Assembly (NCBI RefSeq): GCF_003334765.1
Contig: NZ_QOWT01000020.1
Source: Escherichia coli
Lineage (GTDB): Bacteria > Pseudomonadota > Gammaproteobacteria > Enterobacterales > Enterobacteriaceae
Reading direction: 5' to 3' (one strand)
Length of the DNA: 64,000 nucleotides
Part shown: piece by piece, positions 28,237 to 28,405 of the stretch
Position numbering within the stretch: position 1 is the stretch's first letter
How the letters are laid out: each line of letters starts with the position of its first letter
Made by a program: the position numbers and the translations under genes
The notes under the pieces: generated by a model
Told to the model about the DNA's origin: nothing
Seen by the model: the letters and a program-made list of their open reading frames with translations, nothing else
The model's database searches: none

Positions 28237-28405
28237 TTACAAGAACCAGGGGCGGAAATTCCAGCCCTCTCGATTGTTACGTAGCACGGACAGACTATAC
28301 GCCTGATGGTCGTTCCCCATCGGGCCTGAAAACCGCAATACGCTGGGTAACAATCTTCGAGGGTAGCAGTTAACGCTGCTACCCTCTTTTTTCTGGAGTA
28401 GATTT
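28237..28405 (+). ncRNA. sroC: candidate SroC sRNA region (gltI 3'UTR / gltI-gltJ spacer)
   Basis: Position only: 169-nt spacer between gltI and gltJ, where SroC is described as processed from the gltIJKL transcript; exact ends not determinable here. Confidence 0.4.

Follow-up and report, generated by a model that had tools for sequence, protein, structure and literature searches.

The gltI-gltJ spacer of an Escherichia coli genome carries the locus of the GcvB sponge RNA SroC in its reference form

The window analysed here is a stretch of 64,000 nucleotides from an Escherichia coli contig (NZ_QOWT01000020.1, assembly GCF_003334765.1), in which the gene order nagD-asnB-tRNAs ... lnt-gltIJKL-rihA-hscC is found in an orientation reversed relative to K-12 coordinates. 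The stop codon of gltI (TAA, 28234-28236) and the start codon of gltJ (ATG, 28406) delimit a spacer of 169 nt (28237-28405). A preliminary description of this DNA had given the same length and called it unusual for genes of one operon. The length is exact, as it follows directly from the open reading frame coordinates, and the spacer does stand out within the operon, the two other junctions (gltJ/gltK and gltK/gltL) overlapping by 1 base each at 29146 and 29820. Corresponding loci from 80 other Enterobacteriaceae species were collected via the GltI protein and aligned together with the window (81 sequences in total); their gltI-gltJ spacers range from 154 to 339 nt, none being short. The features of the locus are collected in Table 1.

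Table 1. Coordinates and basis of features at the gltI-gltJ locus (window positions; nt, position within SroC unless stated otherwise).
Feature	Window position	SroC nt	Strand	Description and basis
gltI	27328-28236		+	Periplasmic glutamate/aspartate-binding protein; SroC parent mRNA; open reading frame, matches K-12 gltI annotation
C/A-rich element AACAACACAAACACTCACAAC in gltI 5' UTR	27264-27284		+	-64 to -44 from ATG; predicted target of GcvB R1 (GU-rich)
SroC sRNA	28232-28394	1-163	+	163 nt; ends per K-12 annotation and Rfam model
Unpaired A-rich 5' tail ACUAAUUACAAGAACCA	28232-28248	1-17	+	Unpaired in MFE and centroid folds
Stem-loop 1 (SL1; GGGGCGG...CCAGCCCU)	28249-28268	18-37	+	MFE fold
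Stem-loop 2 (SL2)	28272-28355	41-124	+	Long irregular hairpin presenting both GcvB-binding sites; MFE fold
BS2, GGACAGAC	28288-28295	57-64	+	Perfect 8-nt complement of GcvB nt 156-163 (R3/SL4 region)
BS1, UCGUUCC	28310-28316	79-85	+	Perfect 7-nt complement of GcvB nt 13-19 (SL1)
Rho-independent terminator	28359-28394		+	Terminator scan and MFE fold
gltJ ribosome-binding region (not SroC)	28395-28405		+	GGAG at 28395-28398, 7-nt spacer to ATG; read from sequence
gltJ	28406-29146		+	Permease; open reading frame and K-12 annotation

The preliminary description had suggested the spacer as the source of SroC, a small RNA processed from the gltIJKL mRNA, and had named an Rfam covariance-model search as a means of checking this. 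The search returned a full-length, untruncated match to the sroC model (RF00369, model positions 1-163 of 163) on the + strand at 28232-28394, scoring 174.8 bits (gathering score, 45; E = 7.4e-37). The same segment is identical at 163/163 nucleotides to sroC (b4763) of E. coli K-12 MG1655, whose curated record places the ncRNA at 686681-686843, with 5 nt shared with the end of gltI and 11 nt left before gltJ. The arrangement of gltI, SroC and gltJ in the window, all on the + strand, is the same as in K-12. Together with two GcvB-binding sites at their published spacing, these matches bear out the suggested identity. The ends of the RNA, which had been left undefined, are fixed by the K-12 annotation and the Rfam model at 28232 and 28394, so that the interval originally proposed as the sRNA source needs a small adjustment: the spacer holds most of the RNA, which starts 5 nt before the spacer, inside gltI, and ends 11 nt before the spacer does. 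Further, of 5426 complete E. coli genomes, 5422 contain a match to a 331-nt query spanning the spacer, nearly always in a single copy, and in 5419 the identity is at least 99%. We therefore assign the interval, with a probability of about 0.97, as the E. coli sroC locus in its reference form, encoding an RNase E-processed and Hfq-bound sponge of GcvB. We found no feature of the sequence that contradicts this assignment. It should be noted that SroC in the gltI-gltJ spacer is already known and that the copy described here is identical to the K-12 reference; the RNA-level evidence (northern, RNA-seq) comes from the literature on E. coli K-12 and Salmonella rather than from the window strain.

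Two annotated records were examined for this region and sroC is annotated only in one of them, the curated K-12 record. In the PGAP RefSeq record of E. coli strain 120899 (NZ_CP025916.1, 726857-727025), the spacer sequence is identical to that of the window, and no feature is annotated between gltI and gltJ. This suggests that sroC is routinely missing from automatic annotation, and readers of PGAP-type annotation would thus miss an RNA that controls the level of GcvB.

The surroundings of SroC differ from K-12 at several points. The CTAA at 27225-27228, located 103 nt upstream of the gltI ATG, is the site of IS5D in K-12 MG1655 and is empty in the window, where the lnt-gltI intergenic region is an uninterrupted 396 nt. 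Much of the E. coli work on SroC and GcvB apparently uses K-12, in which the gltI upstream region is split by IS5. Given the presence of the element in K-12 and its absence here, expression of gltI and SroC might differ between the two backgrounds. Across the 3218 nt from gltI to gltL, the sole change relative to K-12 MG1655 is a C for G at 27367, which is hence also the only nucleotide difference in gltI and replaces Ala14 of GltI with Pro (A14P) in the hydrophobic core of the signal peptide. Among 5422 complete E. coli genomes, the best match to 27290-27450 is 160/161, and by this sequence comparison none of them appears to carry the change. Position 14 is Ala or Gly, not Pro, in strain 120899 as well as in six genomes of other species. 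Either a sequencing error or a mutation particular to this strain could account for A14P; in the latter case, export of GltI might be affected.

Further away, the tRNA cluster at 19362-19844 contains five genes, Met(CAU), Leu(UAG), Gln(UUG), Met(CAU) and Gln(CUG), with each Gln tRNA gene doubled in the K-12 annotation (glnU/glnW and glnV/glnX). The K-12 cluster we take to consist of seven genes, metT-leuW-glnU-glnW-metU-glnV-glnX. The region 19300-19900 is matched at 99% identity or more in only 41 of 5425 complete E. coli genomes. Two other Rfam matches were found in the window, both on the - strand. One, to the cspA thermoregulator (57526-57968, 124.1 bits, threshold 78), covers the mRNA of a 69-aa cold-shock open reading frame with the CspE sequence, a paralogue from the cspA family (not cspA itself) that is flanked by crcB and pagP. 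The other, to ES036 (CssrF; 16994-17036), lies in the nagD-asnB intergenic region and is just above threshold (41.1 bits, threshold 37.6).

SroC is predicted to fold into a compact structure with an energy of -66.3 kcal/mol, compared with -40.5 ± 4.0 kcal/mol for dinucleotide shuffles (z = -6.5; 0/200 shuffles were as good). The fold consists of an unpaired 5' tail, two stem-loops and a terminator hairpin, and it is well supported by comparison across species. When the E. coli MFE structure was projected onto the 81 sequences, 88.5% of cells were paired, compared with 35-51% when the partners were slid by 1-3 columns, and the covariation score was 0.242 as against 0.05-0.07 for the slid registers. 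Double changes occur in 20 pairs and in 271 cells (90 ± 9 in shuffles). At the level of individual elements, 85% of SL1 cells are paired and 3 of its 8 pairs have changed on both sides, while compensatory changes are found in 7 of the 10 pairs of the SL2 basal helix and in 6 of the 9 pairs of its apical helix, the latter being paired in 97% of cells. The terminator is paired in 98% of cells and its core is invariant. Its stem (nt 128-155, 28359-28386) comprises 12 bp, seven of them G-C, closed by a UUAA loop, and is followed by the tail UUUUUUCU (nt 156-163, 28387-28394), which contains UUUUUU and is the probable Hfq-binding 3' tail of SroC. Downstream of the RNA, the GGAG preceding gltJ is kept in nearly all of the sequences. 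All 20 diverse loci submitted to Rfam passed the sroC threshold at the same position, with scores of 47.7-181.2 bits. An outer helix present in the Rfam model (nt 12-14 with 160-162) is paired in only 56% of cells across species and was discarded.

The gcvB gene lies outside the window and pairing was thus checked against K-12 gcvB. The two partner sequences there are GGAACGA for BS1 and GUCUGUCC for BS2. BS1 corresponds exactly to the 7-nt apical loop of SL2 in the MFE fold, and the two sites are separated by 14 nt in SroC, as published (PMC4474525). Their partners leave 136 nt between them in GcvB, roughly matching the value of '137 nt apart in GcvB' given in the literature (PMC10250213). 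Structure probing of the GcvB-SroC complex has identified two pairing sites, each of 7 or 8 nt, which are separated by 14 nt in SroC and lie far from each other in GcvB, with protection at GcvB G14, G18 and G156, at the tip of SroC SL2 and at an internal bulge of SroC (PMC4474525). Both sites are strongly conserved: all eight positions of BS2 and the following T are invariant in the 81 sequences, as are the CGTTCC of BS1 and its flanking GG, with the first base of BS1 being either T or C. Helices that would bury BS2 are only 62-74% paired across the same alignment, which is consistent with an accessible BS2 and with the 'internal bulge' seen by probing (PMC4474525). Complementarity to GcvB taken by itself is statistically weak at this length, with shuffled SroC reaching the observed 7-mer count in 3.9% and the 8-mer count in 11% of trials, and the case for BS1 and BS2 thus rests on their conservation together with the published probing and mutagenesis. 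The comparative data add modestly to this in that, across the 80 other species, no unpaired bases are as rigidly conserved as those of the GcvB-contact sites.

Two further perfect complements were considered as binding sites and rejected. SroC nt 101-108 (GcvB nt 189-196) and nt 146-152 (GcvB nt 114-120) both lie inside stable stems, and the alignment consensus of the former is ambiguous across species; both are probably due to chance. Unrestricted RNAduplex calculations on the full-length RNAs yielded duplexes over the whole molecules (-79 and -94 kcal/mol) that carry no meaning, and they were replaced by an exact-complement search and restricted duplexes. A restricted calculation of this kind predicts pairing of window positions 27255-27293, around the C/A-rich element in the gltI 5' UTR, with K-12 GcvB nt 56-91 at -39.1 kcal/mol. 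The literature describes gltI as a GcvB target via a C/A-rich site in its 5' UTR, which we place, by prediction, at 27264-27284; this closes a feedback loop with SroC.

The terminator between gltI and gltJ also invites a simpler explanation, namely that the spacer is only a cis-acting attenuator within the operon, providing more GltI than GltJKL and protecting the 3' end of the gltI mRNA, with no function in trans. The terminator is indeed strong, and it has been described as leaky and as yielding a monocistronic gltI mRNA, in keeping with the need for binding proteins in excess (PMC4474525). Being leaky, it sets the ratio of gltI to gltJKL transcripts. However, an element acting solely as an attenuator would not need invariant unpaired motifs, and both GGACAGAC and CGUUCC are invariant in all 81 sequences and are exact GcvB complements. 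Further, published sroC deletion, pulse expression and structure probing experiments show action in trans on GcvB (PMC4474525, PMC10250213). Attenuation as the sole function is thus already refuted by published genetics and we consider it very unlikely; the cis role itself is real and coexists with the sRNA role.

A second alternative concerns the origin of the RNA. Small RNAs transcribed from their own promoters within 3' UTRs exist, and SroC could in principle be an independent gene of this class, like DapZ and MicL, transcribed from within the 3' end of gltI. A scan of the + strand from 26900 to 30700 returned no sigma-70-like promoter; as a prediction from sequence, this fits an RNA that is processed from a longer transcript instead of being transcribed separately. 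The literature describes a 5' end that lies within the gltI coding sequence, carries a monophosphate and has no associated transcription start site, with biogenesis depending on RNase E and with Hfq needed for the correct end (PMC4474525); the absence of a triphosphorylated 5' end has already been reported for both Salmonella and E. coli SroC. An independent promoter therefore appears even less credible than the attenuator-only explanation. SroC shares its first 5 nt with the last codon and the stop codon of gltI, and the RNase E processing site is placed, on the basis of the literature, at the 5' edge of the tail, its exact position being a prediction. An uncertainty of about 3 nt may attach to the 5' end because the Salmonella residues reported as G61, G65 and G84 are shifted by +3 relative to the Rfam/K-12 start (G58, G62 and G81).

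Several Citrobacter, Yokenella, Trabulsiella and Buttiauxella genomes have spacers of 260-336 nt, the extra length being an insertion of about 127 nt. The insertion is found at two positions, either at spacer nt ~10-140 and thus upstream of SL1 (loci L014, L022 and L050) or inside the 3' strand of SL2 (L040, L042, L049 and L051); the spacers of L069 and L075 are lengthened by insertion as well. In the first seven of these loci, the inserted sequence is presumably an ERIC repeat, as judged from matches to the ERIC1R/ERIC2 primers with 1-7 mismatches. BS1, BS2 and the terminator are intact despite these ERIC-like insertions, and L014, L040, L042, L049, L051, L069 and L075 still score above the Rfam sroC threshold. 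SroC in insertion-bearing species would be much longer or differently processed. A different type of extension is seen in Cedecea colo (L083, 2426-2769), where the terminator stem occurs twice in a 339-nt spacer, once as ...GGCTAGCGCTGCTACCCTC... and again about 160 nt away as ...GGGTAGCGCTGCTACCCTC...; a U-run is lacking from the first copy and present in the second.

Repeats of this kind entering the spacer in other genera, and a 75-aa antisense open reading frame (28237-28464) spanning it in the window, could suggest a REP/ERIC-like repeat or a hidden small protein gene as the explanation of the spacer itself, yet this is the least probable of all alternatives and can practically be set aside: the sequence is single-copy (median of 1 place per genome), the E. 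coli spacer is free of ERIC insertions, the conservation pattern is one of paired stems with covariation, and spacer lengths of 154, 155, 156, 157, 158 ... nt differ by non-multiples of three, so that indels break the antisense frame across species and no reading frame is conserved.

Taking SroC as a processed sponge RNA, the following sequence of events can be proposed. Transcription from a single gltIJKL promoter would pass through gltI, and a fraction of it would stop at the intrinsic terminator (28359-28394) to give monocistronic gltI mRNA; the remaining transcripts would read through into gltJKL, with gltJ expressed only from such read-through. The terminator is identified here from the sequence and its leakiness is taken from the literature, in which a single gltIJKL promoter gives rise to both the full-length mRNA and a monocistronic gltI mRNA via a leaky Rho-independent terminator (PMC4474525). 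RNase E, guided by Hfq, would then degrade the gltI mRNA in a 5'-end-dependent manner and halt at about 28232, leaving a very stable, tightly folded 163-nt RNA with a 5' monophosphate, as described in the literature for Salmonella and E. coli K-12. In E. coli, SroC has been described as extremely stable (PMC10250213). Through UCGUUCC in the apical loop of SL2 and GGACAGAC in the internal bulge next to it, SroC would pair with GcvB nt 13-19 and 156-163, respectively, a step for which complementarity and invariance were computed here and pairing was established by structure probing in the literature. The resulting duplex would turn GcvB into a substrate of RNase E in an Hfq-dependent manner. In Salmonella, GcvB has a half-life of 1.7 min in the wild type and of more than 15 min when sroC is missing (PMC4474525), and in E. 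coli it is 3.8 min when SroC is expressed, compared with more than 16 min in the control (PMC10250213). Loss of GcvB is described in the literature as de-repressing amino-acid and peptide transporters (dpp, opp and others), among them gltI itself, for which the responsible site is predicted here at 27264-27284. As a GcvB target, gltI would thus place SroC in a positive feedback loop with its own parent mRNA. According to published work, about 1% of the genes of E. coli and Salmonella are repressed by GcvB. In RIL-seq data from E. coli, the share of SroC hybrids among the GcvB chimeras increases to about 70% in stationary phase (PMC9299463). Other activities described for SroC in the literature are sponging of MgrR and repression of fliE and flhBAE.

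Two blocks of the RNA are invariant across species and make no contact with GcvB, CCCUCUCGAUUG (28266-28277) and CAAUCUUCGAGGGUAGC (28351-28367). The Rfam consensus contains a helix between them, UCUCG/CGAGG, formed by nt 37-41 and 127-131 (28268-28272 and 28358-28362). The base of the terminator stem is formed by nt 128-132 and 151-155 (28359-28363 and 28382-28386) and uses the same GAGG, making the two helices mutually exclusive. The UCUCG/CGAGG helix is 95% paired and near-invariant, its only variable base, U39 (C or A in 16 sequences), being uncompensated, and the terminator-base helix is likewise invariant across the 81 sequences. Competition for GAGG may represent an alternative-pairing element that affects termination efficiency, and because only one helix can form at a time, the balance of termination and read-through could be set by a trans-acting factor or by the state of SL2. 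Miyakoshi et al. have discussed, as a speculation, control of termination at this site by a cis element or a trans factor (PMC4474525). That the invariant blocks form a regulated switch is a tentative idea and, in our estimation, rather improbable; if it were true, release of SroC, the level of GcvB and the GltI:GltJKL ratio would all be tuned.

As a discovery, the locus contributes little, given that SroC itself was reported in 2003 and its mode of action as a sponge in 2015. The RNA is the previously described SroC (RF00369; b4763; Vogel et al. 2003; Miyakoshi, Chao & Vogel 2015, PMC4474525), with the same 163 nt, position, terminator and two GcvB sites. Compared with sroC of K-12 MG1655, the RNA itself shows no differences, whereas the locus context differs in three ways: the absence of IS5D, GltI A14P and five rather than seven nearby tRNA genes. 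SroC resembles CpxQ, SdhX, NarS, MalH and GlnZ in being released by RNase E from the 3' end of an mRNA, in sharing the terminator of its host transcript, in its association with Hfq and in carrying a 5' monophosphate. Unlike these RNAs, it is generated at an internal leaky terminator between cistrons and not at the end of an operon, and its main target is another sRNA rather than an mRNA. In this latter respect, SroC belongs with the sponges formed by the chbBC spacer (acting on ChiX), 3'ETS-leuZ (RyhB and RybB) and AgvB (GcvB), all of them transcript by-products that titrate or destabilise an Hfq-dependent sRNA. AgvB, encoded by a prophage, acts as a mimic of an mRNA target site. SroC brings about cleavage of GcvB by RNase E via two short, separated pairings, whereas the chbBC spacer exposes ChiX to PNPase.
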